Counted from the stretch's first letter, positions 23,927 to 43,863 are shown. The stretch is 64,000 nt of DNA from Kiritimatiellia bacterium (GCA_050950285.1 JBMNHG010000008.1:248001-312000); one strand, 5' to 3'. A program made the numbers and translations. Notes: generated from the sequence alone by a model not told the origin.

Positions 23927-23937
23927 AATTAGTCAAG
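23917..23937 (+). repeat. 21-bp direct repeat copy 2
   Basis: GATAAGGTGTAATTAGTCAAG. Confidence 0.6.
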
Positions 23938-25531: not shown

Positions 25532-25575
25532 TTGACAAGTACGGTCACCCGTGATAAGTTCGGCGCGCCAAACTT
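25532..25575 (+). promoter_or_regulatory. Sigma70 promoter with overlapping palindromic operator (candidate DtxR-family box)
   Basis: TTGACA(25532)-17 bp-TAAGTT(25555); AAGTTCGGCGCGCCAAACTT at 25556-25575. Confidence 0.7.
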
Positions 25576-25608
25576 TTAAGAGGCGAAGGAACTTGGAAGG
25601 ACGTTGCG

Positions 25609-26367
25609 ATGACGGAAGCGTTGAGCATCAGCATTGAAAACTATCTGGAGACGATCTTTCTCCTCATTCGGGAGCATACGGTTGCCCGGTCGAAGGATAT
25701 CTCGGATCGTCTCGAGGTGAACCGGTCGTCCGTGACCGGCATGTTGCAGACCCTGCGTGACCGGGGACTGGTGAACTACGAGCCCTACGGTTTCGTCACC
25801 CTGACCGCCGAGGGCGAGAAGATCGCCAGCCGCGTCCTGCGGCGGCATGAGGCGCTGCGCGACTTCATGGTGCATGTGCTGGCCATCGACGAGGCCGAGG
25901 CCGACAAGGCCGCCTGCCACATGGAGCACGGCATATCGTCGCGCGTCGTGGAGCGATTCGTCGAGTTCGCGGATTTCGTCAAGACCTGCCCCAGGGCGGG
26001 CGCGAAGTGGGTACACGGCTTCGGGTACCGTTGCGAGGAGGCGGCGGTCGAGCCGCATAACTGCGAGCGGTGCATCGAGCAGTGCCTCGAGGATGTCAGG
26101 AAGAACCAGAGGAAAGGAACAGAGAGTGTCATGACCATTCCACTCAGTGAGTTAAAACCCGGCGAGAAGGCGCAGATTGAGAAGGTCGCCGGTCAGGGTG
26201 CCGTGAAGCGGCGCATCCGCGACATGGGCGTCACCACGGGCAGCCTGGTCGAGGTGGTGCGCGTGGCCCCGCTGGGAGACCCCATCGACGTGAGGATCAA
26301 GGGCTACCATCTGTCGCTCCGCAAGGGGGAGGCGGCGGATATCAGCGTGAAGAGGGTCAACGCATGA
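25609..26367 (+). CDS. DtxR/MntR-family metal-dependent regulator with C-terminal FeoA domain
   Basis: ENYLETI, ARSKDIS..SVTGML, RRHEAL, ACHMEH; C-terminal LSELKPGEKA..RVAPLGDPI..LSLRKGEA. Confidence 0.9.
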   Translation: MTEALSISIENYLETIFLLIREHTVARSKDISDRLEVNRSSVTGMLQTLRDRGLVNYEPYGFVTLTAEGEKIASRVLRRHEALRDFMVHVLAIDEAEADKAACHMEHGISSRVVERFVEFADFVKTCPRAGAKWVHGFGYRCEEAAVEPHNCERCIEQCLEDVRKNQRKGTESVMTIPLSELKPGEKAQIEKVAGQGAVKRRIRDMGVTTGSLVEVVRVAPLGDPIDVRIKGYHLSLRKGEAADISVKRVNA

Positions 26368-26633
26368 GGTGCGCAGCCATGAACCCGGCCTTGTGGATGC
26401 CTCTGAGCCTGGTGCCGGCAGGGCACTCGGTGCGGCTGCGGCGTGTGCAGGCCGGCAGTGGGCTGGCCGCCCGGCTGACCGCCATGGGTCTGCTGCCGGG
26501 AACACAGATACAGGTGTGCCACAACGACCGCAACGGGCCGGTGATTCTCGGAATCAACGGCAACCGGCTGATGCTGGGACGCGGCATGGCGGAGAAGGTC
26601 TCGGTAGAGGATGAAGGGGTGCAGCCGTCATAA
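26364..26633 (+). CDS. feoA: Ferrous iron transport protein A (start may be 26379)
   Basis: RLTAMGLLPG..GPVIL..RLMLGRGMAEKV; between DtxR and feoB. Confidence 0.85.
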   Translation: MRCAAMNPALWMPLSLVPAGHSVRLRRVQAGSGLAARLTAMGLLPGTQIQVCHNDRNGPVILGINGNRLMLGRGMAEKVSVEDEGVQPS

Positions 26634-26665
26634 GACGGACATCCCCACTCTTTTTTTTGTGTTTA

Positions 26666-26685
26666 AAGTTTGGCGTGGCGAACAA
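26666..26685 (+). promoter_or_regulatory. Second candidate DtxR-family operator upstream of feoB
   Basis: AAGTTTGGCGTGGCGAACAA, 16/20 to reverse complement of the 25556 palindrome. Confidence 0.55.
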
Positions 26686-26733
26686 TTATCGCCTTGCCGT
26701 ACTACAGGACGCGTAACGCGCAAAGGGAAATCA

Positions 26734-28797
26734 ATGAAGACGATCATGGTTGCACTGGCCGGCAACCCGAACTCCGGCAAGACAACGCTGTTCAACAACA
26801 TCACCGGCTCGCGCCAGCATGTCGGCAACTATCCCGGCGTGACGGTCGAGAAGAAGGAAGGCACCTGCCGCCACGCGGGGCAGGATCTGAAGGTCGTGGA
26901 TCTTCCGGGCACCTACAGCCTCACCGCCTACTCGATCGAGGAGCTTGTGGCGCGCAACTTCATCATCGACGAGAAGCCGGATGTGGTTGTCAACGTGGTG
27001 GATGCCTCGAACCTCGAGCGGAACCTCTACCTCGGGGTCCAGCTTCTGGAACTCGGCGTCCCCGTGGTCTTCGCCTTCAACATGAGCGATGTGGCCCGGT
27101 CGCGGGGGATCGAGTTCGATCTCGACGCGCTGGCCTCGCGGCTGGGGGCGCCGATCGTCCCGACGGTCGGCAACAAGAATGTCGGCACCACCGAACTGCT
27201 GGACGCGGTGATCCGCGTTGCCGGGGCGGGCCAGCCCGCCTCGGCAACGGAAATCAACTACGGCGCCGATATCGAGCGCTCCATCGGGGCCGTGCGCGAG
27301 GTGGCGCAACGCCATTCCGGTCCCGCCGACGACACGGAAGCCCGCTGGACGGCCGTGAAGCTCCTCGAGAACGACAAGGAGGTCGCCGGGCGCTTCACCG
27401 CGCCGGAGGTGCGCGAGACCGTCCGCGCCGAGCAGGAGCGGATCGCGAAGCTCCTGGGCGACACGGCGGAGATGATCATCGCCGACCGCCGCTACGGCTT
27501 CATCTCCGGCGCGTGCCGCGAGACCGTGCGCTCGACGGTCGAGGCGCGGCGCACGCGCTCGGACCGCATCGACGGGATCGTCCTGCACCGCTTCTGGGGC
27601 ATCCCGATCTTCCTGGTTCTGATGTACCTGGTCTTCTGGCTCACCTTTACCGTGGGCACCCCGCCCATGGAGTGGATCGAGGGGTTCTTCGGTTGGCTGG
27701 GCGAGACGGTGTCCGGCTGGTGGCCGGCGGGCTCGGAGAGCCTGCTCAAGTCGCTGCTGGTGGACGGCATCATCAGCGGCGTCGGCGGGGTGCTCGTCTT
27801 CCTGCCGAACATCCTGCTGCTGTTCCTGGCCATCGCCGTGCTGGAGGATTCCGGCTACATGGCGCGGGCGGCCTTCCTGGTGGACCGGCTCATGCACAAG
27901 ATCGGGCTGCACGGCAAGAGTTTCATCCCCATGCTGACGGGCTTCGGCTGCTCGATTCCCGGCATCATGGCCACCCGCACGCTGGAGAGCCGGCGCGACC
28001 GGCTCACGACGATGCTGGTGCTGCCGCTGATGAGCTGCGGCGCGCGGCTGCCGATCTACGCGCTGATCATCCCGGCCTTCTTCCCGCAGGCCTGGCACGC
28101 GCCCATGCTGTGGATCATCTACCTGACCGGCATTGTCCTGGCCATAGTCTGCGCCAAGCTGCTGCGCTCGACGCTCTTCAAGGGCGAGTCCGTGCCGTTC
28201 GTCATGGAGCTGCCGCCCTACCGCATGCCCACGCTCAAGGGCGTGCTGATCCACATGTGGGAGCGCGGCAGTCTCTACCTCAAGAAGGCCGGCACGGTCA
28301 TCCTGGGTATTTCGATCCTCCTGTGGGTGCTGACCAGTTTCCCGCGGCTGAAGAGCGTGGATCCCGGCCTCTCCCCCGGGGAGCGGCAGGCCGCCGAACT
28401 CTCGCACACCATCGCCGGAAGGATCGGCCACGCCATGGAGCCGGTCATCAAGCCGATGGGGTTCGACTGGCGCATCGGCACGGCCATGATCGGCGCGTTT
28501 GCGGCGAAGGAGGTCTTCGTGGCGCAGATGGGCATCGTGTATTCCGTGGGCGAAGCCGACGAGGAGTCGGAGCCGCTGCGCGACAAGCTGCGGGCCAACT
28601 ACTCGCCGCTGGTCGGGTTCTGCATCATGCTCTTCATGCTGATCTCCGCGCCGTGCATGGCGACCATCGCGGTCACGAAGCGCGAGAGCAATTCATGGAA
28701 GTGGGCCTTGTTCCAACTGGGCGGCCTCACGGCGCTGGCCTACGTGGTGACGTTGGCCGTGTACCAGATCGGCTCGGCCCTCGGAATCGGAATCTAG
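26734..28797 (+). CDS. feoB: Ferrous iron transporter B
   Basis: GNPNSGKT, VGNYPGVTVEKK, DLPGTYSL, GFGCSIP, MSCGARLP, AAKEV. Confidence 0.96.
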   Translation: MKTIMVALAGNPNSGKTTLFNNITGSRQHVGNYPGVTVEKKEGTCRHAGQDLKVVDLPGTYSLTAYSIEELVARNFIIDEKPDVVVNVVDASNLERNLYLGVQLLELGVPVVFAFNMSDVARSRGIEFDLDALASRLGAPIVPTVGNKNVGTTELLDAVIRVAGAGQPASATEINYGADIERSIGAVREVAQRHSGPADDTEARWTAVKLLENDKEVAGRFTAPEVRETVRAEQERIAKLLGDTAEMIIADRRYGFISGACRETVRSTVEARRTRSDRIDGIVLHRFWGIPIFLVLMYLVFWLTFTVGTPPMEWIEGFFGWLGETVSGWWPAGSESLLKSLLVDGIISGVGGVLVFLPNILLLFLAIAVLEDSGYMARAAFLVDRLMHKIGLHGKSFIPMLTGFGCSIPGIMATRTLESRRDRLTTMLVLPLMSCGARLPIYALIIPAFFPQAWHAPMLWIIYLTGIVLAIVCAKLLRSTLFKGESVPFVMELPPYRMPTLKGVLIHMWERGSLYLKKAGTVILGISILLWVLTSFPRLKSVDPGLSPGERQAAELSHTIAGRIGHAMEPVIKPMGFDWRIGTAMIGAFAAKEVFVAQMGIVYSVGEADEESEPLRDKLRANYSPLVGFCIMLFMLISAPCMATIAVTKRESNSWKWALFQLGGLTALAYVVTLAVYQIGSALGIGI

Positions 28798-28807
28798 GAG
28801 GGCGGCC

Positions 28808-28975
28808 ATGTGGGAGAATCTAATCGTGGTTGTCGTTGTCGGCGCGGCAGTCTTGTTCGTCGGGCGCGCGTTGTGGCGCGACATGCGGGACGAGGCCGGC
28901 CGCGGATGCCGGGGCTGCAGGGGCTGCGACCGTCGGGACAATGCGAAAGGAGCGTGCCATGGCATCGACGCATGA
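28808..28975 (+). CDS. FeoB-associated Cys-rich small membrane protein (55 aa; not in ORF track)
   Basis: MWENLIVVVVVGAAVLFVGRALW..GCRGCRGC..C; AGGAG RBS after feoB. Confidence 0.75.
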   Translation: MWENLIVVVVVGAAVLFVGRALWRDMRDEAGRGCRGCRGCDRRDNAKGACHGIDA

Positions 28976-29315
28976 GGCCGTGTTGGCGCGGATCGAAGAG
29001 CTCTACCGCATGCTGTTCGCGCATAGCGGTTACGGCGAAATGGCGATCGAGATTCGCTTTCTGCGCAAGCACGAGAAAGAGGTGTTGATCAAGTGCGGCA
29101 AGCAGTACCGCTTCATTGTGCCTTGCGACAGTCCGACGGAAGCGGTCGACCCGGGTTGCGAAGCCGACGCGGGCGCGCATGGAAGAATTGAAAGCAGCGC
29201 GGGCGCAGGGCGTCCGCCGGAACGACGTGTACAAAAGACGAAGGAAGCACGGAACAAAGCCGATCCCGCAGGGCGGGCGGCGGCCGTGTCGGGAAAGGAG
29301 TTGCGCATCGAGTGA
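28959..29315 (+). CDS. Small hypothetical protein
   Basis: AAGGAG RBS; MASTHEAVLARIEELYRMLFAHSGYGEMAIEIRFLRKHEKEVLIKCGKQYRFIVPC. Confidence 0.7.
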   Translation: MASTHEAVLARIEELYRMLFAHSGYGEMAIEIRFLRKHEKEVLIKCGKQYRFIVPCDSPTEAVDPGCEADAGAHGRIESSAGAGRPPERRVQKTKEARNKADPAGRAAAVSGKELRIE

Positions 29316-29321
29316 AACATC

Positions 29322-29426
29322 GGTTGCGGGAGCGGTTCCCGCGCCATGGAATCTGCAAGACATGCCGGACGGGCTGACCGAGGCGGGAGCCGTCCATGAA
29401 AGAAAAACGGGCATCGAACGATGCTC
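29322..29426 (+). ncRNA. Candidate structured cis-regulatory RNA, copy 1 (5' of prepilin 1)
   Basis: 71 nt 69/71 identical to 31786-31856, plus a 3' GGGCA hairpin in both copies. Confidence 0.5.
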
Positions 29427-29449
29427 CATCAAGTGAAAGAAAAAACAGC

Positions 29450-30292
29450 ATGAAAACGAAAACGAAAACGAAAATGAACAAAAGTGGTTTCACCCTGATC
29501 GAGCTGCTGATTGTGATCGGCCTGCTCGGTGCGCTGGTCGCGCTGATCCTGCCCAGGCTGACGGCCGACCGCGAGGAGGCCATGGGCGACGTGTGCGACT
29601 ACAACCAGGCCGGCACCGTGCGCGTGCTGACCCAGTACGTGGACATGTTCGGCGCCTACCCCGCCGGCATGCACAACGGCATGCAGACGGCGTCGGGCTC
29701 ACCGGAGGCGATGGAAGGCCTCCCCGAGGCGCAGGAAGACCACATGGTCACCCAAATCGCGACCACGCGGCTGACGCTCGACGCCAACCAGGCGAAATCG
29801 CTGGTGGACGCAGGCATCAAGTCCATCGCCTACGGCACGGGCTACAACATCGTCGACGTGGCGCAGGATGTCGTCGTGGCGCAGGCTTGCGCCGCCGATG
29901 GCTCCAACCCCTGGTTTGACGACTCCGACCCTGCGGTGGAGATGACGTTCGACGGCATCGCGATCAGCGACTGGGCCCAGGCCACGGCGGGGGCGACCCC
30001 GATCTGGAACGAACAGGGCGGCGCGGGCCCGGTGGTCTGCCTCTGGATCACGCCGACCATCGACTGGGCGAAGGGCGACGGCGGCAACACCGACTGGACC
30101 AAGGGCGCCGTCGAGTACGGCATCAGCATGGAAGGCAAATGCCCGATCCCGACGGTGGCCACCAGCCAAGGCGGCGCCGACGTCGAGGTGGACTTCGCCT
30201 ACTACATGGCGTACTTCAAGGTGTACAACGACGGCACCCCCGCGCGCATGATCGGCAGCACCTGCCCGGAATGCGGCGTGCTGAATCCGTAA
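29450..30292 (+). CDS. Large type IV prepilin-like protein 1
   Basis: KSG|FTLIELLIVIGLLGALVALILP class III signal; ends TCPECGVLNP. Confidence 0.88.
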   Translation: MKTKTKTKMNKSGFTLIELLIVIGLLGALVALILPRLTADREEAMGDVCDYNQAGTVRVLTQYVDMFGAYPAGMHNGMQTASGSPEAMEGLPEAQEDHMVTQIATTRLTLDANQAKSLVDAGIKSIAYGTGYNIVDVAQDVVVAQACAADGSNPWFDDSDPAVEMTFDGIAISDWAQATAGATPIWNEQGGAGPVVCLWITPTIDWAKGDGGNTDWTKGAVEYGISMEGKCPIPTVATSQGGADVEVDFAYYMAYFKVYNDGTPARMIGSTCPECGVLNP

Positions 30293-30304
30293 CCTGAACG
30301 CAAA

Positions 30305-30359
30305 ACCCCGGCTGCGGGGGTTCACGCCCCCGCAGGCTTCACGCCCCCGCAGCCCTTTT
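30305..30359 (+). terminator. GC hairpin after prepilin 1 with duplicated 3' arm and T tract
   Basis: GGCTGCGGGGG TTCACG CCCCCGCAG...CCCTTTTG; 31 bp identical to 31731-31761. Confidence 0.6.
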
Positions 30360-30384
30360 GGAATTTTTCGTGCGCAGACATCAC

Positions 30385-30804
30385 ATGAAGACAACAACCG
30401 GAACCAACAGGCCGCTTTGCACGGCCGTGCTGGTCTTGTATGTGGCGGGGGCGTTGCTGCTACCCGCCCTTCACAAGTATTTTTCCGGGTGCGTCTGCGC
30501 CGACGGCATGAACGGCCTGGTCCGGCGGTGTTGCCCGGCCTCCCATGCGCATGGCGACAACATCGCGGACGACCCGCAAGACGCCAAGCCAGACAAGCCA
30601 CCCCACGATCCGGCCACCTGCGCGATCTGCCAGCTCGCGAACATCCCCATCCACACGGCGTCCATGGCGATCGCGACGCCGCAAAACGGGCCTGTTGAAC
30701 CCGTTCCGCCCGCCGTTTTCCGGCAACCTGACATCCAGACGCCCCGTCTGCACCCCTTCTCCTGCGGTCCTCCCGCCTGGCTTCATTCCCCAGGCATCAT
30801 CTAA
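30385..30804 (+). CDS. DUF2946-like His/Cys-rich protein
   Basis: N-terminal hydrophobic helix, LH, SHAH, HDPATCAICQL, Pro-rich tail ending SCGPPA. Confidence 0.6.
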   Translation: MKTTTGTNRPLCTAVLVLYVAGALLLPALHKYFSGCVCADGMNGLVRRCCPASHAHGDNIADDPQDAKPDKPPHDPATCAICQLANIPIHTASMAIATPQNGPVEPVPPAVFRQPDIQTPRLHPFSCGPPAWLHSPGII

Positions 30805-30896
30805 CACGAACAGACGGTCGGCGCGAACGCGCCGAGCCCGTCGATACTACGCGGCTTCCCGAAGAACGCCGCGAAAGACCAAAGGAAAATCAAGGA

Positions 30897-31721
30897 ATGA
30901 ACACAAACAAAACGATGAATTTGACGACGAACAAGAACGGCTTCACCCTGATCGAACTGCTGATCGTGATCGGCTTGCTCGGGGCGCTGGTCTCGCTGAT
31001 CCTGCCGCGACTCTCGGCCGACCGCACAGAAGCCCTGGGCGACGTGTGCGACTACAACAAGGCCGGCACGGCCCGGGCGCTCATGCAGTACGAGAACGTC
31101 TTCGGCCGCTACCCGGCCGACCTGCACAACGGCTTGCAGGGAACCGACGCCGCCGCGCTGGCGATGGAAGGCCATGCGTCCCCGCAGACGGAACGCATGG
31201 TGACCCACATCGATACGACCCGGCATCAACTGACGGCCGAGGAGGCGGCCTCGCTGTCTTCGGCGGGCATCACCAGCATTTGCTCCGGCACCGGTTTCAA
31301 CAGCACGCCGGTTGCCGCCGGCGTACACGTGGCGGTCGCGGCCGCGGCCGACGGATCCAACCCCTGGGCCGGCGGCGGGAAGCCCGAGATCACCTTCGAC
31401 GGCGTTCTCGTCAGCGACTGGGCCGACGGCTCCGGCGGGCCAAGCTGGAATCAAGGCAAGACGGGGCCGATCGTCGTGCTCTGGGTCGCGCCGACCGTCA
31501 ACTGGGCCGGTGGCGGCGGGGGCAACGGCGACTGGACCAAGGGGGCGGTCGAGCTGGGGATCAGCCTGGAAGGGCAGTGCCCCGTGCCGACGAAATCGAC
31601 GACGGGCGGCGATCCCGACTTCGCCTACTACATGGCGTACTTCAAGGCGTTCAGCGACGGCGTCACGCCGGCGCGCATGATTGGCTTGACGTGTGCCGGA
31701 GGAGGCACGCTGAACCCGTAA
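30897..31721 (+). CDS. Large type IV prepilin-like protein 2 (paralog of 29450-30292)
   Basis: NG|FTLIELLIVIGLLGALVSLILP; shared GDVCDYN, DWTKGAVE, FAYYMAYFK, PARMIG. Confidence 0.88.
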   Translation: MNTNKTMNLTTNKNGFTLIELLIVIGLLGALVSLILPRLSADRTEALGDVCDYNKAGTARALMQYENVFGRYPADLHNGLQGTDAAALAMEGHASPQTERMVTHIDTTRHQLTAEEAASLSSAGITSICSGTGFNSTPVAAGVHVAVAAAADGSNPWAGGGKPEITFDGVLVSDWADGSGGPSWNQGKTGPIVVLWVAPTVNWAGGGGGNGDWTKGAVELGISLEGQCPVPTKSTTGGDPDFAYYMAYFKAFSDGVTPARMIGLTCAGGGTLNP

Positions 31722-31730
31722 TATCACTGC

Positions 31731-31763
31731 ACCCCGGCTGCGGGGGTTCACGCCCCCGCAGCC
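31731..31763 (+). terminator. GC hairpin after prepilin 2
   Basis: GGCTGCGGGGG TTCACG CCCCCGCAGCC; no T tract. Confidence 0.45.
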
Positions 31764-31785
31764 TGTCTCGGACATGATGGCTATT

Positions 31786-31883
31786 GGTTGCGGGAGCGGT
31801 TCCCGCGCCATGGAATCTGAAAGACATACCGGACGGGCTGACCGAGGCGGGAGCCGACCGCAAACGACGGGCACGGATGTGCC
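31786..31883 (+). ncRNA. Candidate structured cis-regulatory RNA, copy 2 (5' of flavodoxin)
   Basis: Near-identical to 29322-29392; GGCAC GGAT GTGCC 3' hairpin. Confidence 0.5.
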
Positions 31884-31914
31884 GCGAAACCAAAGGACAA
31901 CAGAGAAGAAAAAG

Positions 31915-32424
31915 ATGAAGATCGGAATCTATTACGGAAGTACAACCGGCAACACGAGGAGTGCCGCCGCCGCGCTAGCCGATGCGTTGAAAGGCGCGGG
32001 CGAGGTCGCCCTGCATGATGTCGGAAGCGACGGGCTCGCGGGCATGGCCGACTGCGACCTGATCCTGCTCGGCAGCTCGACGTGGGGTCTCGGAGACATG
32101 CAGGACGATTGGGTCGCACACCAGGATTTGCCGGGGATCAACCTCGAAGGAAAGACCGTTGCCGTCTTCGGCACGGGCGATCAAACGGGGTTCTCGGATT
32201 CGTTTGTCAATGCGATCGGCACCCTCGCCGATTCCGCCGAGAAGGCGGGGGCGCACCTGGTCGGTGCCTGGCCGACCGACGGCTACGACCTCCTGGAATC
32301 CACCGCCGTTCGCAATGGGCGCTTCGTCGGGCTGGCCTTGGACGAAGACAACCAGGCCGACCAAACCCAGACCCGCATCGCGCAATGGGTGGCGCAACTG
32401 AAGACGGAACTCGGACTGTGCTGA
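31915..32424 (+). CDS. fldA: Long-chain flavodoxin
   Basis: IYYGSTTGNT, LGSSTWGLG, VFGTGDQ, FVGLALDEDNQ, RIAQW. Confidence 0.92.
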   Translation: MKIGIYYGSTTGNTRSAAAALADALKGAGEVALHDVGSDGLAGMADCDLILLGSSTWGLGDMQDDWVAHQDLPGINLEGKTVAVFGTGDQTGFSDSFVNAIGTLADSAEKAGAHLVGAWPTDGYDLLESTAVRNGRFVGLALDEDNQADQTQTRIAQWVAQLKTELGLC

Positions 32425-32425
32425 C

Positions 32426-32794
32426 ATGAGAGTCTTCTGCCACCACATTTACGAGTACCAGAAAGGGGTACGCAACCTTGTGCTGCACACGCTTCCCGCC
32501 TCGACCCGCCCGGAGGTCGAGCGCAAGCTCGAAGCCAAGGGCATCGCCTACCTGGTTTGCCCCCTCGGAAAACACCAGATCAACGTGTTCTTCGGGGACG
32601 GGCACTGCGTTGAGGTCGTGCGACGCATCGGCAAATCCAGCTTGTGCGACTACACGCCGGAGGAGGACTTCATGCTGGGGATCATGCTCGGCTACGACCG
32701 GCTGCGCCAGTGCAAGCGCTATCTGGAACGCAGCCGCCTGCGGAAGCCGTCCGCGCAAGGGCCGTCCATTCTGGAGAAAGAGAAGGCGGGATGA
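32426..32794 (+). CDS. DUF2023 family protein
   Basis: HHIYEYQKGVRNLVLHT, INVFFG, TPEEDFMLGIMLGYD; adjacent to flavodoxin. Confidence 0.8.
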   Translation: MRVFCHHIYEYQKGVRNLVLHTLPASTRPEVERKLEAKGIAYLVCPLGKHQINVFFGDGHCVEVVRRIGKSSLCDYTPEEDFMLGIMLGYDRLRQCKRYLERSRLRKPSAQGPSILEKEKAG

Positions 32795-33543
32795 ACACGA
32801 AGGGGACAGGGAGCCGTCAAGGCATGGCGCCCCGACCGGCGCCGGTCGGCGGCGGGCATCGGTGCGGGGGAGGCGGCGCCTGCACGGGCTGCCTGACCGG
32901 AAACCCCTGCCCCGCCTGCCGCGAACGACAGAACGGGGCGACGGCCGCCGGTGCACAGCCGCTGGTTCGCGGCGCGGCCGGGCGTGCTGGCGGCTTCACC
33001 CTCATGGAGATGCTGATCGTGATCGGCCTTCTCGGGGCGCTGGTCGCCTTGATCCTGCCGAAGCTGACCGTGCAGAAGACCTGGGCGGTCGACGAATCCA
33101 TGGCGCCGGCCGAGATGATGGACATCCGCCGCGCCTACGCGGCGTTTCAGGCCGACTGCCTCCCGACGGCGGCGGACCGCGCCCAGATCGGGCGCTACGG
33201 CCTCGCGGTTCTGATGACGACCAACCTCGCCTGGTCAACGGGGTGGTCCTTTCCGATGACTTTCGATCCGCGCCGCGGCAAGGGCTGGCGCGGCCCCTAT
33301 TTGCAGCCGGAAGGCGTCCGCCGCGTCTATCTCGACGAGGAGGGGCAGTCCCTGGCGGGCACGGGGCCGACCGCCGAAATCCCGGTCGTTCACGACCCGC
33401 GCCATGCCACGGACGCCGCCGACGCCGCGGAACGCTTCTACCGGGTGCAGATGCGCACCAACACCCTTTACCTCGTCTATGTCGGCGCCGACGCGGTGTT
33501 CGGCTCCGACGACGACGTTGCTCAGCCATTGGAGACGCCATGA
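32791..33543 (+). CDS. Type IV prepilin-like protein 3 with long Cys-rich leader
   Basis: ATGA-coupled start; GG|FTLMEMLIVIGLLG; GWRGPYL (GspG-like motif). Confidence 0.85.
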   Translation: MNTKGTGSRQGMAPRPAPVGGGHRCGGGGACTGCLTGNPCPACRERQNGATAAGAQPLVRGAAGRAGGFTLMEMLIVIGLLGALVALILPKLTVQKTWAVDESMAPAEMMDIRRAYAAFQADCLPTAADRAQIGRYGLAVLMTTNLAWSTGWSFPMTFDPRRGKGWRGPYLQPEGVRRVYLDEEGQSLAGTGPTAEIPVVHDPRHATDAADAAERFYRVQMRTNTLYLVYVGADAVFGSDDDVAQPLETP

Positions 33544-35915: not shown

Positions 35916-36568
35916 TCAGGGCGATTCGACGCGCCTTGCGCCAGTGGAAGCGCGAGTTCCTGGCCTTCTGGAGCCGTTTCACGGCGTTCCACCGGATCGT
36001 GATCGGCATCCTGCTCGCTATGGGCGTTGTCTTCCTCGCCCGCACGCGCATGCTGGATCCGCTCGAAAGGGAGCTGGCCGCCGTGCGCAAGGAGCTGGCC
36101 GACAAAGGGGTTCCCGCCCGGGTGCCATCGGCGGACGCGGACGAGGAAGTCCAGCAGGAGCTGCTTCGCGCGGAGAACCTCCGGCGCAGCATCGAAAACC
36201 AGATGGGCGAGCTGGCCGCCATCGAGGCGACGACCGATTTGCGCCTGGACGCGGGCAAGGCGGACGCCCATGCCGCCCTCCTCGCAATGGCCGGCCGCCA
36301 CGGGCTGCGCGTGTTGAAAAACGCCGCCGCCGAGCCGCCGGCGGGCGGGACGATTCCCGTGGAGGCTTCCACCTACGAGCTGGCGGGGCGCTTCGCCTCC
36401 ATCTACGGATTCCTGGACGATGTGCGGCGCGGGCCGATTCTCTGGGAGCTGCGCGATCTGTCGATCGTGTTGCTGGACGAAGGCGATCGCCCCGGCGGCG
36501 CCGCCGCCCCGCCGTTGAAGCTCGGCTTCACCCTTGTGCTGCGCCGCTACGACGGAGGCGGGAAATGA
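35912..36568 (+). CDS. PilO/GspM-like protein
   Basis: TM, coiled coil, YELAGRFASIYGFL ferredoxin-like fold motif; synteny. Confidence 0.6.
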   Translation: MIRAIRRALRQWKREFLAFWSRFTAFHRIVIGILLAMGVVFLARTRMLDPLERELAAVRKELADKGVPARVPSADADEEVQQELLRAENLRRSIENQMGELAAIEATTDLRLDAGKADAHAALLAMAGRHGLRVLKNAAAEPPAGGTIPVEASTYELAGRFASIYGFLDDVRRGPILWELRDLSIVLLDEGDRPGGAAAPPLKLGFTLVLRRYDGGGK

Positions 36569-38022
36569 GCGCCAGGCGCGTCGTCGATCTTTCAAAGGTG
36601 GTCGCCTCCGAGGCGGCGCTGGCCAAGGTGCCCGGAAGGCTGGCCCGGCGCTACGGCCTCCTCCCGGTGGGGCTGGACGGCGAGACGCTGAGCGTGGTGC
36701 TGGCGAACCCCGACGACCCGATGGGCGTGATGGAGCTCGAAAGCCGCCTGGGCCTGCATGTCAAGACGCTCGCCGCATCCCGCCCGGAAGCCGTTGCGCG
36801 CGCCATCGAGCGCTACTATGCGGGCGCGGATGGCGACGAGCCCCCGACCGCGCTGGCCGCGCTCGAGCGGCTGGTCAACCGGGCGATCCAGATTCACTGC
36901 TCCGACATCCACCTCGACCCCGAGGACGGCGCGGGCGTTGCGCGCATGCGCGTGGATGGCATGATGCGCGTCGTCGGCGAATACCCGCCCGCGTTCATGG
37001 CCGACTTGGTCTCGGCCGTCAAGGTCGCCGCGCGGCTCGACATTTCCGAGCGTCGTGTGCCGCAGGACGGCCAGATCGTGATGGACAGCCTGGGCGAGTC
37101 CATCGCCATGCGCGTGGCGGTCGTCCCGACCACGCACGGGGAGAAGGTCACGCTGCGCATCCTGGCCACCGCCGCCGTGTCGGAGGAGCTCGACCGGCTC
37201 GACGCCCTGGGCATGACTGAACGCCATTACGGCATGATGCACGCGGCCCTCGAGCAGCCCTACGGCGTGATCCTCCTGTCCGGCCCGACCGGGAGCGGCA
37301 AGACGACCACCCTCTATGCCGCGTTGCGCTATTTGCGCGAACCGGGCACGAGGCATATCCTGACAATCGAGAATCCGGTCGAAATCCCGCTGAAGGGCGT
37401 CAACCAGATCCAAATCGACGGCGAGCGCATCACTTTCGCGAAGGCGCTGCGCAGCGCGTTGCGGCACGACCCGGACGTGATCATGGTGGGCGAGATCCGC
37501 GATCCGGAGACGGCCGACATCGCCGTCAAGAGCGCCCTGACGGGCCACCTGGTCCTGGCCACCCTGCACGCCAACACGTCGGTGTCCGTCATCACCCGTC
37601 TGCTGAACCTCGGGATCACCCGCGAGCTGGCCGCCTCGACCCTGCGCCTGGTCGTGGCCCAGCGGCTGGTGCGCCGCCCCTGCCCGCACTGCTCGGTCCT
37701 GGAGCCGGCGACCGAGGCCATGTGCGCGGAGTTCGGCTGGGATCCCGCCGCGCCCCCGCCGGTGCCGCGCGTGCGCGGCTGCGCGTTTTGCGGACAGCTT
37801 GGCTATGCCGGGCGGTTCGGGCTTTACGAGATGGTGCCGGTGGACCGGGAGCTGCGCGACCTGATCGTCGCGGGGGCGGCCGAGGACAGCATGGCCGACT
37901 TCGTCTTCGGGCGGCGCAAGCTCGCGACGCTGGCGCAGGATGGCGCCGAAAAGGTGAAGGCGGGGGCGACCACGCCCGAGGAAGTGCGGCGCGTGACGTT
38001 TCTCGGGGAGGATGAAAGCTGA
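36565..38022 (+). CDS. pilB: PilB/GspE assembly ATPase
   Basis: SDIHLDP, LDISERRVPQDG, GPTGSGKTTT, LRHDPDVIMVGEIRD, CPHC..CAFC. Confidence 0.9.
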   Translation: MSARRVVDLSKVVASEAALAKVPGRLARRYGLLPVGLDGETLSVVLANPDDPMGVMELESRLGLHVKTLAASRPEAVARAIERYYAGADGDEPPTALAALERLVNRAIQIHCSDIHLDPEDGAGVARMRVDGMMRVVGEYPPAFMADLVSAVKVAARLDISERRVPQDGQIVMDSLGESIAMRVAVVPTTHGEKVTLRILATAAVSEELDRLDALGMTERHYGMMHAALEQPYGVILLSGPTGSGKTTTLYAALRYLREPGTRHILTIENPVEIPLKGVNQIQIDGERITFAKALRSALRHDPDVIMVGEIRDPETADIAVKSALTGHLVLATLHANTSVSVITRLLNLGITRELAASTLRLVVAQRLVRRPCPHCSVLEPATEAMCAEFGWDPAAPPPVPRVRGCAFCGQLGYAGRFGLYEMVPVDRELRDLIVAGAAEDSMADFVFGRRKLATLAQDGAEKVKAGATTPEEVRRVTFLGEDES

Positions 38023-39257
38023 TGCCGGCCTTTCGATACACGGTGTTGCAGAACGGCGCCCGGCGCGAGGGGGTCGTCGAGGCGGAATCCGAGCGCGCGG
38101 CGGCCGAGCGTCTGCGGGCGGACGGGGCGAGCGTCCTGTCGCTCGCGCCGGCGCCCGCCGGAGCGGCTCCCCGGCAATCGCCCCGCTGGCTCGACTCCCT
38201 TGCGGATCGCATGTTGATCCGTTCCCAGAGCATCGAGCTGACCTTGCGCCAGCTCGGATCCCTCCTGCGCGCCGGCGTCCCGATCCTGACCGCGCTGACC
38301 GCGCTCGCGCGCACCGCCACGCCCCGGTTGAGCCGGGCGCTTGAGCGCACCGCCGGCGTCATACGCGAGGGCAAGTCCTTCAGCAAGGCCCTGGCCATGA
38401 ACCTGCCTGGCGTGGATCGCGTGACGATCGGCCTGCTGGGGGTCGGGGAATCCAACGGCACGCTGGACGCCATGGCCGTGCATGCCGCCGGCCTGAAGGA
38501 ACGTTCGCGCAAGACGCGCGAGCAGATCGTCCAGGCGTTCAGCTACCCCGTGGTGGTGATGCTTGCGGCCATGGGCGTGGGCGCCTACATGGTCCGGAGC
38601 GTGTTTCCCGTGATCATGAAGTTCATCGCCTCCACCCGGAAGACCGCGGAGCTCCCCCTGCCCACGCGCATGGTCGTCGCCCTGGACGGCTTCCTGTCGA
38701 CGTACGGAGTCTATGTGCTCATCGCGCCCTTTGCGTTGGCGGTGCTGGTTGTGGCGCTGCGGCGCTCCCCCCGCACCGGCGAGCTGGTGGATCGGGCCGC
38801 GCTGCGGCTGCCGCTGCTGGGCGGCGCGTTCAAGTTCCACGCCAACGCGATGTGGTGCTCGACGCTTGGTTCGCTGCTGGCCAGCGGGCTGGACGTCCTG
38901 GCCGCCGTGGACCTCGTGCGCGGCACGATGGGCAACATGTTCTACGCCGCGCAATTCGAGCGCGTGCGGGAGATGCTGCGCGGCGGCTCCAGCCTGAGCA
39001 AATGCATCGAGGCGACGGAGCTTCAGCGGCTGACGCCCATGGCGCACACGCTGGTCAGCGTTAGCGAGGAGGGCGGGCACATGGACGACAGCCTGCTTGA
39101 GGTCGCGCGTTTTTCGGAAGACGAGCTCAACCGCCGCGTGGCGCTGCTGAGCAAGCTGGTGGAACCCGCCATGTTCGTGTTGGTGGGGGGATTCGTCGGA
39201 CTGGTTTATTTCGGCTTCTTCCTGGCGGTGCTGACGGCAACGCGGGCGGGGCGGTAA
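38022..39257 (+). CDS. pilC: PilC/GspF inner-membrane platform protein
   Basis: RQLGSLLRAGVPI, GESNGTL, FSYP, LVEP; two T2SSF repeats. Confidence 0.9.
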   Translation: MPAFRYTVLQNGARREGVVEAESERAAAERLRADGASVLSLAPAPAGAAPRQSPRWLDSLADRMLIRSQSIELTLRQLGSLLRAGVPILTALTALARTATPRLSRALERTAGVIREGKSFSKALAMNLPGVDRVTIGLLGVGESNGTLDAMAVHAAGLKERSRKTREQIVQAFSYPVVVMLAAMGVGAYMVRSVFPVIMKFIASTRKTAELPLPTRMVVALDGFLSTYGVYVLIAPFALAVLVVALRRSPRTGELVDRAALRLPLLGGAFKFHANAMWCSTLGSLLASGLDVLAAVDLVRGTMGNMFYAAQFERVREMLRGGSSLSKCIEATELQRLTPMAHTLVSVSEEGGHMDDSLLEVARFSEDELNRRVALLSKLVEPAMFVLVGGFVGLVYFGFFLAVLTATRAGR

Positions 39258-39276
39258 GGGAAAAGGAACGCAGAGA

Positions 39277-39777
39277 GTGAAACGATCAGGTGTTTGGATA
39301 CGGATTGCCGTTGTGGCCGCCGGTCTTGGAGTGCCGGTCATGGCCCCGGCGGCGGATGCCGCCGCCGCGACCAATGCGCCGGCGGAACCCGTTGTGCAGG
39401 CCGGGAGCCCGGCGCCCGGCGCGGGCCGGGATGCGGCGGAACCCGCAATTCCGATCGGCGACCCGTTTGCCATGCGGGGGCTTGCGGAAGGCGACGGGTT
39501 CGTCAGCGCCGGCCCCGCGGCGATGCCGCCGGGTATCCGCGTCGTCGCGATTCTGGCGGTCGCCGGCAGGCCGCCGGTCGGGGCGCTGTCGATTCCCGGC
39601 GCCGCCACCCTGCATTTCATCCGCGAGGGGGACGTGATCCAGGTGGATCCCCCTGAAGAAACCGCGGCCAAGGGCGCGGCCGGCTCGCAGTTGTATCTGC
39701 TGGTGAAGTCCATCACGCACAACCAGGTGGAACTCGCACCACGCACGCGCCCGCAGGATGTGAGGATCTACCGATGA
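39277..39777 (+). CDS. PilP/GspC-like periplasmic protein
   Basis: Signal peptide, DPF motif, FIREGD; immediately upstream of secretin. Confidence 0.55.
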   Translation: MKRSGVWIRIAVVAAGLGVPVMAPAADAAAATNAPAEPVVQAGSPAPGAGRDAAEPAIPIGDPFAMRGLAEGDGFVSAGPAAMPPGIRVVAILAVAGRPPVGALSIPGAATLHFIREGDVIQVDPPEETAAKGAAGSQLYLLVKSITHNQVELAPRTRPQDVRIYR

Positions 39778-41714
39778 AGAGACAAGGATTGGCAGGCGTG
39801 ATGAAATCGCACAGGAGCATCATGGTCTTGAGTCTGGCCGCGGCCCTGGCGGGGGCGTTGGCTTCCCCGGCGGCGGCGCATACGGAAGCGGTGCAAACGG
39901 CGGCCGAACCGGTGGTTATCGAATCCGTGTTCGTCCGCGACATGGCCTTGCGCGACTTCGCCGAGCTGATGACCCGCGGATGCGAGTCGGAATGGAAGGT
40001 GCTGGTCAGCGAGCAGGCGGGGGACAAGCGCATCAGCTTCTACCTCTCCGACACCGGCATCGAGGAGACGCTGCGGTCGATTTGCGCCACCTACGGCCTG
40101 TGGTATCGCCAGGCGCCACGCTCGGATATCGTGCAGATCATCACGATGGACGAATACCGCAAGGGGCTGAACCTGTATGCCGACGAGGCCGTCGAGGTCG
40201 TTCCGGTCATGTATCCGGCGCCGGAGGAAATCGGCGACACGCTCGCGCGGCTGTTCCAGGACCGGGTGGTCTGGGATCCGCCCCCCGAGGACATCGCCGA
40301 CGACATGCCGCACATCGAGAGCGCCCTCGACCGCATGGACACCATGGCCGATCGCGCCACGCTGGTGGATACCGAGAATCTTGACGGCACAGGCGGCAGC
40401 TCTTCCTCTTCCTCTTCCTCGTCCTATCGCTGGCGGTCGGACGATTCGTGGAGCCGCTCGGACCGCTATGGCCGCGGGAGCCGCTCGGACCGCTACGGGC
40501 GCGGATACGGGTCGGGTCGGCATGGCGGCGGAACCGGCAGATCCGGCGAGGAGCAAACGGTCGAGCAGGTGGTCGAGCAGCAGCGCCGCGCCATGGAGGC
40601 GCAACAGGCGGCCAAGGGAATCCCCGAGGATCTCGCCGGACGCAACGACCGGCCGGGGCTGGTCTACATCTCCGCCTCGCGGTCGGCAAACGCCCTGATT
40701 CTACGGTCGAGCGATGCGGCGTCGGTCGAGACCATCAAGAACGTCATCCGCGATCTGGACAAGCCCAAGCCGCAGATCCTGCTCGAAGTCAAGGTGCTCG
40801 ACATCCAGCTCGGAGACGAAGAGGCGCGCGGCGTGGACTGGCTGTTCCAGCGCGAGCTGAACTCGGACGGCGTCATGTTGAGCGGCGGCCGCGCGACCGG
40901 CATCACGACCGAACCCGGCAACGTGATCCGCTCGTCGGACCCCCTGTCGCTGGTCCCCCAGGGCACGGGGCTGGATACCCTGGCCGCCGTCTTCTCCGTT
41001 GTCAGCGACGAGGTCCGCGCGCGACTCCAGTTGCTGGAGGACCAGCGGCGCGTCCGCACCCTGGCGACGCCGAGCCTGCTCGTGGCCGACAACGAGGCGT
41101 CCCGCATCTTCATCGGCAGCGAGGTGACGGTGCTGGAGAAGGTCGAGCCGGAGACGAGCTTCATCGGCACGGAGAACCCGCAGCCGGTGACGACGTACAC
41201 CGTCACCTCCCCGCGCAAGCGGATCGGAACCACGTTGCTGATCACCCCGAAAATCCACGCCGACCGCACGGTCACGATCCGGCTCTTGCAGGAGGAAACG
41301 CAGCTTGGCGCGCAACGGACGATCGCGTACGGGCAGACGGCCTCCGATCAGTTCACCTCGCAGGACGTCGAGGAACGGTCCGTCACCACGACGGTGCTGG
41401 CCAAGGACGGCAACACCATCGCGATCGGCGGCCTGATTCGCGAACGCGCGGAGGAACGCGAGACCGGCGTGCCGGTCCTCATGCACATCCCCCTCCTGGG
41501 GCAGCTCTTCAAGCGCACCGTCCGCTCCGAGACGCGCAGCGAGCTGCTGGTGCTGATCCAGCCCCGCATCCTGCTGGCGCCGGGGGAAGGCGAGACCGTT
41601 TCCCGCGCCGCGATGGAGCGGGCGGCCCGGAGCGCCGAGGAGCTGGGCCGGAAGTGGAGGGATTTTGAAAAATCGGCCGAGGAACACGCAAAGGAGGTTT
41701 CAGATGCCGAGTGA
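39774..41714 (+). CDS. Secretin (PilQ/GspD family)
   Basis: NALIL..IRDLDKPKPQILLEVKV, LATPSLLVADNEAS, ITPKIH, IGGLI, GVPVLMHIPLLGQLFK, SELLVLIQPRI. Confidence 0.92.
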   Translation: MKRQGLAGVMKSHRSIMVLSLAAALAGALASPAAAHTEAVQTAAEPVVIESVFVRDMALRDFAELMTRGCESEWKVLVSEQAGDKRISFYLSDTGIEETLRSICATYGLWYRQAPRSDIVQIITMDEYRKGLNLYADEAVEVVPVMYPAPEEIGDTLARLFQDRVVWDPPPEDIADDMPHIESALDRMDTMADRATLVDTENLDGTGGSSSSSSSSSYRWRSDDSWSRSDRYGRGSRSDRYGRGYGSGRHGGGTGRSGEEQTVEQVVEQQRRAMEAQQAAKGIPEDLAGRNDRPGLVYISASRSANALILRSSDAASVETIKNVIRDLDKPKPQILLEVKVLDIQLGDEEARGVDWLFQRELNSDGVMLSGGRATGITTEPGNVIRSSDPLSLVPQGTGLDTLAAVFSVVSDEVRARLQLLEDQRRVRTLATPSLLVADNEASRIFIGSEVTVLEKVEPETSFIGTENPQPVTTYTVTSPRKRIGTTLLITPKIHADRTVTIRLLQEETQLGAQRTIAYGQTASDQFTSQDVEERSVTTTVLAKDGNTIAIGGLIRERAEERETGVPVLMHIPLLGQLFKRTVRSETRSELLVLIQPRILLAPGEGETVSRAAMERAARSAEELGRKWRDFEKSAEEHAKEVSDAE

Positions 41715-42810
41715 CCTGGATCGCTGGCTCGATGAGCTGACCGCCCGCGGAGGCAGCGACCTGCATCTTGCAACGGGCAACCACCCCATCATCCGGCTGC
41801 ACGGACGCCTCGAGGCGCTTGACCAGCAGAACGCGCCGCTGAGCGCCGAGGCCATCACCGCCGCGATCGCCAGGGTCGTCGGCGAGGACGCCCTGGACAG
41901 CCTGCGGCACACCGGCGAGCTCGACGCCGCGTTCGAACGGAAGGACGGCACGCGCCTGCGCATCAACGCCTACCGGCAGCAAGGCGACTTCGCCGCCGCG
42001 ATCCGGCTTTTGCCCAACCGCTTCTTCGAGCTGGACGAGCTGGGCCTCGACGTGAACCTCCTGCGGCGCATCTGCGCCATGCAGTCCGGCCTGATCCTCG
42101 TCACCGGGGCGACCAGCAGCGGCAAGTCGACCACGATCGCCAGCCTCGTGAACGAGATCAACAAGACCCAGGCCCTCCACATCCACACCATCGAGGATCC
42201 GATCGAATACCGGCATGTAAGCCAGCGGTCCTTTGTGACGCAGCGCGAGGTCGGGCGCGACACCGCGAGCTTCGCCGAGGCGCTGCGGCGCAGCATGCGG
42301 CAGGATCCCGACGTGGTCGTCGTGGGCGAAATGCGGGATCTCGAAACCATGACCGCCGCCTTGACGCTGGCCGAGACCGGGCACTTGACGTTCGCGACGC
42401 TGCACACATCCGACGCCGTGCAGTCCGTCTCGCGCATCATCAGCTCCTACCCCGCCGTGCACCAGGCCCAGGTCCGCGTGCAGCTTGCGTCCACGCTGCA
42501 AGTCGTCATGAGCCAGAAGCTCGTGCCGTGGGCCGACGGCAAGGGCCGCTCCCTTGCGGCCGAGATCCTCGTCGCCACGCCAAACGTGCGCGCGATGATT
42601 CGCGAGGAGAAGACCCACCAGATGCGCACGGCGATGCAGACCGGCGGGGAATACGGCATGCAGACCCTCAACCAGTCGCTGCTCTCCCTCCTGAACCGCC
42701 GGGTGATCGATCGCGCCACCGCATTGGAATACAGCGAGGACAAGGCGCACTTGCTCGAGGAACTCGACCTCCAAACCAGCCAAAAGACAAAACGGAAAAG
42801 TGTACGATGA
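41704..42810 (+). CDS. pilT: PilT retraction ATPase
   Basis: SDLHL, GATSSGKST, TIEDPIEY, QREVGRDT, RQDPDVVVVGEMRD, AETGHL, NVRAMIRE, GMQT. Confidence 0.92.
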   Translation: MPSDLDRWLDELTARGGSDLHLATGNHPIIRLHGRLEALDQQNAPLSAEAITAAIARVVGEDALDSLRHTGELDAAFERKDGTRLRINAYRQQGDFAAAIRLLPNRFFELDELGLDVNLLRRICAMQSGLILVTGATSSGKSTTIASLVNEINKTQALHIHTIEDPIEYRHVSQRSFVTQREVGRDTASFAEALRRSMRQDPDVVVVGEMRDLETMTAALTLAETGHLTFATLHTSDAVQSVSRIISSYPAVHQAQVRVQLASTLQVVMSQKLVPWADGKGRSLAAEILVATPNVRAMIREEKTHQMRTAMQTGGEYGMQTLNQSLLSLLNRRVIDRATALEYSEDKAHLLEELDLQTSQKTKRKSVR

Positions 42811-43181
42811 AACGATATTGCAAGATTCTTCTTCCCCTGCTGCCGCTCGCGCTTCTGTTTTCGGGGTGCGAACCCGGCGAAGACGACGTGCGCGGCGAGC
42901 TGCCTGTGACGCCCGCCTCGACGACCCTGGGCGGCGACCAGGACACCGTGATCTTGACGGCGGACGTTTCCGCGGGCGGCGCGGACCCGGATCCCATCGT
43001 CTATCCGTTGAAATGGTCCGTCAGCAACCCCGCCGCCGGACGCATCGACGCGCAGTCCGCGAACAGTGCCGTCTACACCCACGTGATCAGGAAAACGTCT
43101 TCCAACGTCATCACTGTCCGCGACGGCCTGGCCCGCAAGGGCGTCGCCACCGTCCATTGGAGCCCGGCAGGCAAGGACTAG
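42807..43181 (+). CDS. Small lipoprotein (Ig-like)
   Basis: MKRYCKILLPLLPLALLFSG|C lipobox; ATGA-coupled to pilT. Confidence 0.75.
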   Translation: MKRYCKILLPLLPLALLFSGCEPGEDDVRGELPVTPASTTLGGDQDTVILTADVSAGGADPDPIVYPLKWSVSNPAAGRIDAQSANSAVYTHVIRKTSSNVITVRDGLARKGVATVHWSPAGKD

Positions 43182-43200
43182 CGGAAGTGAGGAAGTGAAC

Positions 43201-43863
43201 ATGGCAGTCGTCCCGTTTAAAAGGCTCATCAAAAACGCGGGCAGGCCTTCCGACACATTTTGGGGCCGGCTCATGCTCGCCGGCATGAACCGCGGACATC
43301 AGAAGATGGCCTTGTGGTGCATCGACACTTGCATGGATTTGTCCGGGAGCGAGGATGTTCTGGACATCGGTTGCGGCGGCGGGCAAAACATCGCGAATTT
43401 TTTGAAGCGCACGGGCGGCAAGGTCTATGGCATGGACTACTCGCCAACGAGCGTGGCGAAGTCGCTGAAGAAAAACAAGCGGGCCGTGGCCGGAAAACGC
43501 GCCGTGATCGTGCAGGCCGATGTTGCGGCGATTCCGTTTGAGAACAGCGCCTTCGACGTGGCAACCGCCTTTGAAACCATCTATTTCTGGAAGGACATCA
43601 TCGCCGGCTTCAAGGAAGCGAAGCGCGTGCTGAAGCCCGACGGGAAGTTCGTGGTGTGCAACGAGGCGTCGAAGTTGGACGGCAATGAATATTTGCTGGA
43701 TATTCTGGACATGCGAATCTACACGGTCGAGGAAATAACCGAAGCCATGCGACAAGCCGGTTTTGCCGACGTGCAAGCATACAGGCGCGACAACACGCAG
43801 CACATCTGCGTGATCGGACGGCGACGGCCTGGCGGGCACGACGATCGAGGCCGCCGACAATAA
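43201..43863 (+). CDS. Class I SAM-dependent methyltransferase (copy 1)
   Basis: VLDIGCGGG, GMDYS, FDVATAFETIYFW, RVLKPDG. Confidence 0.88.
   Translation: MAVVPFKRLIKNAGRPSDTFWGRLMLAGMNRGHQKMALWCIDTCMDLSGSEDVLDIGCGGGQNIANFLKRTGGKVYGMDYSPTSVAKSLKKNKRAVAGKRAVIVQADVAAIPFENSAFDVATAFETIYFWKDIIAGFKEAKRVLKPDGKFVVCNEASKLDGNEYLLDILDMRIYTVEEITEAMRQAGFADVQAYRRDNTQHICVIGRRRPGGHDDRGRRQ

Follow-up and report, generated by a model that had tools for sequence, protein, structure and literature searches.

By the textbook account, heme and iron complexes cross the outer membrane through TonB-dependent receptors, and retraction of a pilus is known to import DNA. Here we describe a type IV filament cassette embedded in an iron operon of a Kiritimatiellia bacterium (GCA_050950285.1, JBMNHG010000008.1:248001-312000; this whole stretch of 64,000 nucleotides is called the window below). 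The cassette adjoins iron genes in most of its relatives, and its gene content points to a dedicated filament, presumably induced by iron starvation, that probably captures an external iron source and delivers it inward. Judged by analogy, the closest known system in working principle is the Sulfolobus bindosome (Bas), whose own PilB and PilC assemble large prepilin-like subunits for nutrient uptake (PMC4371748). The bindosome is archaeal, carries sugar-binding ABC proteins and has no secretin or PilT, while the pilins of the window showed no homology to substrate-binding proteins among the families covered by Pfam or fold searches.

Bacterial type IV pilins have also been tied to growth at low iron, as for Synechocystis PilA1 and Legionella PilA2 (PMC4144903, PMC13170364). 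Those pili are general-purpose, whereas the machine described here is separate and embedded in iron operons. With type IVa pili (T4aP) it shares class III prepilins, PilB with CxxC motifs, PilC, a PilT scoring over cut-off, a PilM fold, PilN homology, a secretin and a prepilin peptidase (PilD) in trans. It differs in its fused PilM and PilN, its GspD-like secretin with no AMIN domain detected in Pfam or NCBIfam scans, its compact iron-linked operon and its first pilins, which span 260 to 400 amino acids across iron modules without a close solved fold; PilY1 and PilU were not seen in the locus. Its ATPase, platform protein, secretin and pilin N-termini score best against HMMs of type II secretion systems (T2SS; Gsp), with which it also shares a GspL-like fusion and a single locus, but it has PilT, passes no Gsp cut-off, has no GspK or GspN match and encodes a large, variable first pilin.

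Some relatives of the locus resemble described heme operons. Fusobacterium hmuTRUVWF pairs HutW/HmuW with a flavodoxin-family partner in anaerobic heme degradation (PMC10404700), and Bacteroidetes hmuYRSTUV has a CobN-ExbB-DUF2149 block (PMC10434189); both features recur among the relatives. Unlike the hmu operons, the relatives' operons show no TonB receptor or HmuY, and a pilus cassette or prepilin fills the place. The window itself, again unlike the hmu operons, has no heme genes.

The filament cassette is linked to iron genes

The head of the first pilin in the window (pilin 1) defines a small family of 95 proteins, with 107 representatives at 50% identity; its nearest named relative is a Kiritimatiellia record, with an 87% match to the head of pilin 1. 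Another family member, P0037, carries the source label Kiritimatiella glycovorans L21SP4_01601, a species in culture. When species genomes were scanned, 36 loci emerged across Verrucomicrobiota (Kiritimatiellia, Lentisphaeria, Opitutales), Planctomycetota, Sumerlaeota, Hydrogenedentes, Omnitrophota and Thermodesulfobacteriota. Wherever the contig reaches, the cassette has the order first pilin, pilin 3, pilin 4, PilM-N, PilO, PilB, PilC, PilP, secretin and PilT. No account of it was found in the literature searched (mostly open-access texts), and the available part of PMC7690835 held nothing on iron.

Of the 51 nonduplicate loci analyzed (six repeats dropped), 49 had upstream DNA that could be measured, and in 30 it extended for 4 kb or more. 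DtxR, Fur, Feo, flavodoxin, HutW, HemS, ferritin and imelysin were counted as strict iron genes. At least one lay nearby in 26 of the 30 cassettes, compared with 0 of 79 unrelated prepilin loci (0 of the 48 of those with at least 4 kb), which a metagenome scan returned along with one true homologue and which are alike at the N-terminus only. When DUF2023 was counted as well, the figure was 28 of 30. The homologous clusters are thus mostly linked to iron; had most been unlinked, this would have undermined the first-pass annotation, in which the locus was an iron-limitation pilus feeding FeoB. The dedicated, iron-linked filament system with PilT stood. The tie to FeoB did not, as FeoB occurs in only 11 of 22 pilin-1-type cassettes, the remainder having Fur, DtxR alone, flavodoxin or DUF2023, and heme and imelysin modules also occur; strict Feo coupling was therefore rejected. 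By gene content, the partner of the cassette is iron in general, not Feo specifically.

As first read in the window, iron genes are interleaved with the pilins rather than merely adjacent, and this arrangement recurs in relatives, with DUF2023, flavodoxin or Fur between the first pilin and pilin 3. Fur lies inside or ahead of the cassette in L035, L043 and L077 (L and G numbers are our handles for loci and genomes), ferritin and HemS accompany it in L054, and DUF2023 is fused in frame to prepilin 3 (L063, L064, two Planctomycetota). In Bacteroidetes, DUF2023-flavodoxin is induced more than 100-fold on iron depletion (PMC10434189). Together, these data support the iron-regulated, dedicated status of the cassette much better than any mode of action.

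A mobile pilus cassette that once landed behind an iron promoter, and that has traveled with it since, would leave a patchy distribution. The cassette is indeed rare, present in 17 of 301 phylum genomes, and two further phylum samples of 251 gave a full-length match in the centre genome only. Lower-GC flanks with HipA-like and AAA/DUF4143 genes and copies broken by insertion sequences (IS; G277 and L063) fit such a history too. We nevertheless judge incidental linkage very improbable, given that the iron modules are of four or more kinds and the regulators of two families, that DUF2023 is found fused to a pilin, and that DtxR-type operators are kept where the iron genes are gone (L066, L067 and L076).

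Several loci showed further peculiarities. L070:7241-8641 is an apparent PilB/PilT chimera, L060/L033-L034 is IS-split with a truncated pilin 1, and ISL3 sits inside pilin 4 of L063. One genome has two cassettes, and the second, L216 (G145:C56), encodes yet another divergent first pilin and has its upstream region cut by a contig end. DUF2325 proteins recur near flavodoxin/DUF2023 upstream of the cassette (L032, L038, L048 and L202), and L190 has a DUF3793-flavodoxin 3′ of it.

The first pilin varies with the iron module

In G071, G113 and G203, the same machine is accompanied by a different, Met-rich pilin of about 390 amino acids and adjoins HutW, an ECF transporter and a Flavodoxin_3 protein. 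Seven such heme-type cassettes are among the 30 with at least 4 kb upstream, and one further follows imelysins. ECF units of the HutW-linked type import heme, and Met pairs can ligate heme. HutW of L190 passed the TIGR04107 cut-off of 400 with a score of 411, and that of L191, at 394, fell just under it. A third pilin belongs to the partial cassette of G299, which is preceded by two imelysins and a di-heme oxidoreductase (imelysin/di-heme locus L192). A search with PilM-N only, and hence no pilin or iron query, found six new genomes. All five with upstream DNA had the order hutW-ECF-flavodoxin-pilin-machine; the locus of the sixth stops at a contig edge. Past the N-terminus, homology between pilin 1 and the heme-type pilin was unsupported (HHalign probability, 0.7% and 2.3%), and ESM Atlas leads for the heme-type pilin stayed under 0.9. 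Pilins that are exchanged with the iron module, in a machine placed in iron operons, suggest that iron is drawn across the outer membrane by a route not yet described.

Since the genome yielded no orthologue of HutW and neither HemS nor CobN, pilin 1 itself most likely has non-heme iron as its ligand. The searches for HemS, CobN, imelysin and LbtU in this genome found none, and that for HutW returned only a 28% radical-SAM match.

Prepilins also occur in iron operons away from the cassette. Six Lentisphaeria-like loci combine a small gene (described below) and a prepilin head in one operon with ExbB, DUF2149 and, contig permitting, CobN, so placed that the prepilin occupies the HmuY/TonB receptor place of the hmuYRSTUV layout (PMC10434189); one of the six was scanned against Pfam and the others were assigned by similar layout and sequence starts. 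No pilus machine was seen in those six stretches. A lone DUF1559-like prepilin with the small gene heads an hmuSTUV-like operon (ExbB, DUF2149, CobN) in L194, L196, L197, L198 and L200, and the pair also occurs in L195 and L199, next to feoB. The family concerned is one in which 48 genomes yielded no TonB receptor. Such a lone prepilin may be a hemophore on another pilus.

The cassette is separate from the genome's other pili

The genome (4.05 Mb, 99% complete) has a second feo locus and, outside the cassette, at least five PilB/GspE genes and two PilT genes along with several for PilC and secretins, so that the locus is not its only pilus. In a quick ATPase tree, the cassette PilB (36 rows; SH-aLRT, 98) and PilT (17 rows; SH-aLRT, 95) formed clades apart from the genome's other ATPases; the tree held no characterized references and omitted L065, L068 and L069 (duplicates) as well as L070. 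With other PilB/PilT sets in the genome and the cassette ATPases in clades of their own, the reading as a housekeeping pilus was rejected.

An iron-induced pilus for adhesion or twitching could instead bring cells to iron minerals, heme-rich particles or other cells, with iron entering through separate porins or importers. PilB with PilT suits surface attachment, the pilins are very acidic, and in Synechocystis growth on iron oxides is helped by PilA1 (PMC4144903); according to a second-hand account in PMC13170364, a pilT mutant is likewise impaired. This explanation seems quite unlikely. The genome already has its other PilB/PilT sets, and the heme-type operons unite the machine with an importer and an enzyme of heme degradation; as searches of those genomes gave no outer-membrane receptor, no other heme entry route is evident there.

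The machine combines features of pili and type II secretion

The window holds the core of the type IV filament superfamily, namely prepilins, extension ATPase PF00437, platform PF00482 and secretin PF00263, with the peptidase in trans, and by these matches the machine is a member of that superfamily. Four prepilins match PF07963/TIGR02532 (class III signal, E5), three of them passing TIGR02532 clearly and the fourth marginally. The model of the 461-amino-acid PilM-PilN protein (AF2 pLDDT, 92.5) matched PilM (E of 2e-9) and GspL-family domains (E of 5e-7) in Foldseek, and its profile found the PilN-position gene in two pilMNOPQ-ordered operons (E of 1e-12 and 3e-10). The PilO-like gene reached only E of 0.05 to 0.08 against PilO-position genes, and the PilP-like gene matched PilP-position genes weakly (E of 9e-4 and 4e-3, in a small sequence set). 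A PilB broken by the Asn in its Asp box was considered and rejected, as the same variant recurs in several homologues.

PilB plus PilT had been taken in the first-pass annotation to indicate a dynamic pilus rather than a plain T2SS, and this reading held in part. PilT is over cut-off, and it is present in the window and in most loci long enough to show one, contrary to the T2SS, in which PilT is described as lost (PMC6668835). The core, however, scores nearer to Gsp proteins (GspE, 424, versus PilB, 404; GspF, 225, versus PilC, 187; GspD, 211, versus PilQ, 128; none over cut-off), the T4aP cut-offs being 676 for TIGR02538 (PilB) and 284 for TIGR02515 (PilQ).

These scores would suit an iron-regulated, T2SS-like export piston, in which a short periplasmic filament exports or displays an iron scavenger (a hemophore, reductase or lipoprotein) and PilT resets the piston. 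GspG models likewise outscore their T4aP counterparts, the best solved relatives of the secretin are GspD, PilM and PilN are fused as in GspL, the single locus is compact, and the top weak fold matches of pilin 1 are PulG/EpsG. We consider the piston unlikely, since PilT speaks against it, a conserved cargo gene was not seen across the loci, and a first pilin of such size that varies with the iron module is expected of a receptor, not of a piston.

A possible retraction-driven uptake route and the evidence against it

More specifically than iron capture by a dedicated filament, the cassette could encode TonB-independent, ATP-driven outer-membrane uptake of iron and heme, with the exchangeable major pilin as receptor, pulled through the secretin to Feo or ECF importers under the control of DtxR and a module of small protein and dual-hairpin RNA; we put this forward tentatively. 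In the broader account of a dedicated capture filament, which is the simplest and the probable one, low iron would free the DtxR operator, and the small protein and hairpin leader would tune output of the first pilin. PilD would mature the pilins in trans, and PilB would build a filament of pilins 1 and 2 through the secretin with pilins 3 and 4 as primers. The large pilin heads would bind the iron source, PilT retraction would bring loaded subunits into the periplasm, and the linked importer would complete uptake (FeoB here, the ECF transporter with HutW in heme-type relatives). Flavodoxin and DUF2023 would be iron-sparing, coregulated genes rather than machine parts.

A pilus devoted to iron would extend retraction-driven uptake from DNA to a micronutrient and would account for the iron supply of diderms that lack a TonB system, of which this genome is one and many Lentisphaeria-like genomes are others. 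Older, indirect links between pili and iron (cyanobacteria, Legionella) would become testable in a clean single-operon system, and pilin variants would predict different ligands. No TonB-dependent receptor or TonB C-domain was found in this genome. Within its order, 15 of 33 genomes have a receptor and none of these has the cassette, compared with 10 of the 18 receptor-less genomes, a contrast inflated by kinship. In one Lentisphaeria-like family, receptors were present in 0 of 48 genomes.

Several observations weigh against uptake by retraction or against the iron link beneath it. In the available text of PMC13170364, the Legionella pilin aids iron uptake without PilT or PilD and is not iron induced; because the effect is independent of PilT and PilD, links between pilins and iron need not involve retraction. 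The higher Gsp scores count here too. Fold searches revealed no recognized metal- or heme-binding fold in pilin 1: its model (AF2 pLDDT, 87) gave nothing in Foldseek at E of ≤0.001, the best Z being 2.9, to PulG and pilins. The conserved residues of its family (His75 in 70, Tyr251 in 73 and Tyr252 in 65 of 79) may be structural. No strict iron gene lies near 4 of the 30 cassettes (G274, L063, L067 and L074), two of which, G274 and L074, are without DUF2023 or an operator match as well. The 79 controls were scanned with queries from cassette loci and a Fur profile of four sequences, which distant iron genes could escape, and the related loci behind the 26 of 30 are not independent; the five heme loci of the PilM-N search come from one genus. 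TonB-dependent receptors do occur in nine genomes that carry the cassette or a pilin of it (G020, G128, G277, G299 and G301-G305), G301-G305 being all five carriers tested via loci of the species-genome scan (5 of 5 with receptors). The cassette as a strict replacement of TonB receptors was accordingly rejected as a general rule.

Predicted regulation by a DtxR operator and a leader RNA

The regulator that heads the locus scored best in NCBIfam against MntR (89 bits) and DtxR (50 bits), both under cut-off; the operon content of relatives (flavodoxin, DUF2023, ferritin, HemS, HutW and imelysin) points to iron rather than manganese as its corepressor. No Fur was found in the genome by profile search. 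Palindromes similar to that at the dtxR promoter occur at the dtxR promoters of related loci, and nine dtxR-promoter sites were used to train an operator matrix. In 11 of 30 loci, some of them without Feo or DtxR nearby, it found a site no more than 2.5 kb upstream of the first pilin; one of the 11 had served for training. As background, control DNA totalling 560 kb gave 4 matches and the whole genome of 4.05 Mb gave 24. Heme-type promoters scored just under threshold or lower, with 5.8 to 12.1 where hutW leads. By sequence, then, the locus has a DtxR-family repressor with a conserved palindromic, putative operator at its own promoter and at target genes.

A 77-nucleotide leader occurs twice, before pilin 1 and before flavodoxin. 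Of 47 regions upstream of first pilins (some duplicates), 29 contained a hairpin leader, versus 8.6% of shuffles. Double-sided changes were seen in 7 of 8 pairs, a count that is partly circular, as rows were chosen by pairing pattern. The covariance model gave 16 matches at E of ≤0.057, all at leader positions and some in LbtU and hmu-like operons outside the training set, with none under E of 0.35 in controls. The leader had no Rfam match, and its single-sequence folding was unremarkable (z, −0.4 to −1.5).

In 37 of the 49 cassette loci, the small gene is no farther than 10 kb from the first pilin, usually just upstream, and a search for it gave matches in 25 of 301 genomes. Five genomes without a match also lack the leader, yet several small-gene loci gave no model match. 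The gene also precedes LbtU porin-feoAB and hmu-like operons. It appears to be a marker of iron operons and, with the hairpin, to form a portable module of them. Its product is possibly, by analogy to HmuP, an RNA-binding regulator; ESM Atlas returned unnamed clusters only. In seven loci of one genus (L164, L166, L167, L169, L170, L185 and L201), the small gene heads an operon of LbtU-family porin, feoA and feoB with no pilus, and the leader hairpin is present in at least two.

Layout of the locus

The roughly 20 codirectional genes first listed were all found in place by Pfam and NCBIfam scans of the 64-kb window, plus one extra, all on the + strand at 25609-43181 (Table 1). The tight packing seen from DUF2023 onward was borne out through the lipoprotein, where genes abut or overlap apart from a 19-nucleotide gap ahead of the PilP-like gene; the overlap of secretin and PilT is visible in the sequence, with ATG 41704 as the PilT start. 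A prepilin peptidase, noted earlier as missing, is indeed absent from the locus, and one is encoded at C8:83953 on the same contig, which supports action of PilD in trans on the locus prepilins.

Table 1. Features of the iron-linked filament locus (window coordinates)
Feature	Position	Strand	Basis
Putative promoter, −35 hexamer at 25532-25537	25532-25575	+	Sequence reading; consensus promoter scan gave no call
Palindromic DtxR-type operator, 20 bp, over −10 region of dtxR promoter	25556-25575	+	Matrix score 22.9, genome's top match, but training site
DtxR/MntR-family repressor with C-terminal FeoA domain	25609-26367	+	PF01325, PF02742, PF04023
FeoA	26364-26633	+	PF04023
Second 20-bp palindrome, operator-like, before feoB	26666-26685	+	Matrix score 16.8, among top five of 24 genome matches, not training site
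FeoB	26734-28797	+	TIGR00437, 629 bits (cut-off 316)
FeoB-associated Cys-rich peptide	28808-28975	+	PF12669
Small gene, conserved 58-residue core, between Cys peptide and pilin 1	28959-29315	+	No Pfam/NCBIfam match
Leader RNA element copy 1, bulged hairpin with G-rich loop and second similar hairpin	29319-29395	+	Repeat, covariance search
Prepilin 1, probable major subunit, mature 267 aa, acidic	29450-30292	+	PF07963
GC-rich stem-loop 3′ of pilin 1	30310-30359	+	Sequence, repeat matches; scan gave no + strand call
DUF2946-like His/Cys protein	30385-30804	+	PF11162, E 0.002, 19.3 bits (under cut-off 23.7)
Prepilin 2, paralogue of pilin 1, 61% identity	30897-31721	+	PF07963 scan, genome search
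Leader RNA element copy 2, 95% identical to copy 1, ahead of flavodoxin	31783-31859	+	Repeat, covariance search
Long-chain flavodoxin	31915-32424	+	TIGR01752, over cut-off
DUF2023	32426-32794	+	PF09633
Prepilin 3 (minor), long Cys-rich leader	32791-33543	+	Family scan, conservation in relatives
Prepilin 4 (minor)	33540-34529	+	Family scan, conservation in relatives
Fused PilM-PilN, GspL-like architecture, 461 aa	34530-35915	+	AF2, Foldseek, profile search
PilO/GspM-like, assigned mainly by position	35912-36568	+	Conserved in cassette
PilB/GspE extension ATPase	36565-38022	+	T2SSE+MshEN (PF00437); Walker A, His box, two CxxC motifs
PilC/GspF platform	38022-39257	+	PF00482
PilP/GspC-like	39277-39777	+	Weak profile match
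Secretin, nearer GspD than PilQ	39774-41714	+	PF00263, NCBIfam scores, solved relatives
PilT retraction ATPase	41704-42810	+	TIGR01420, 409 bits (cut-off 319); Walker A, Asp and His boxes
Lipoprotein, possible pilotin	42807-43181	+	Sequence comparison

A repeat search found the GC-rich stem-loop downstream of pilin 1 again at 31736-31763, 3′ of pilin 2; the two are possibly stabilizers or partial terminators. Many relatives have a TPR lipoprotein ahead of pilT in place of the terminal lipoprotein. The Cys-rich motif of the prepilin 3 leader (window 32860-32925) is a separate open reading frame in L031, L046 and L048, sits on the DUF2023 C-terminus in L047 and is on the pilin leader in L054.

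Just upstream of the locus, window 19597-25410 is of lower GC and island-like, with two AAA_14/DUF4143 ATPases, an ADP-ribosylglycohydrolase and a split HipA-like pair. Thirteen nucleotides past the lipoprotein lies a SAM methyltransferase gene (43195-43863). Its paralogue near window 51081 is 91% identical, and L031, L056 and L075 likewise have methyltransferases beside the cassette. Farther downstream, window 44068-44777 consists of apparently noncoding DNA with short direct repeats of 43 to 116 nucleotides.

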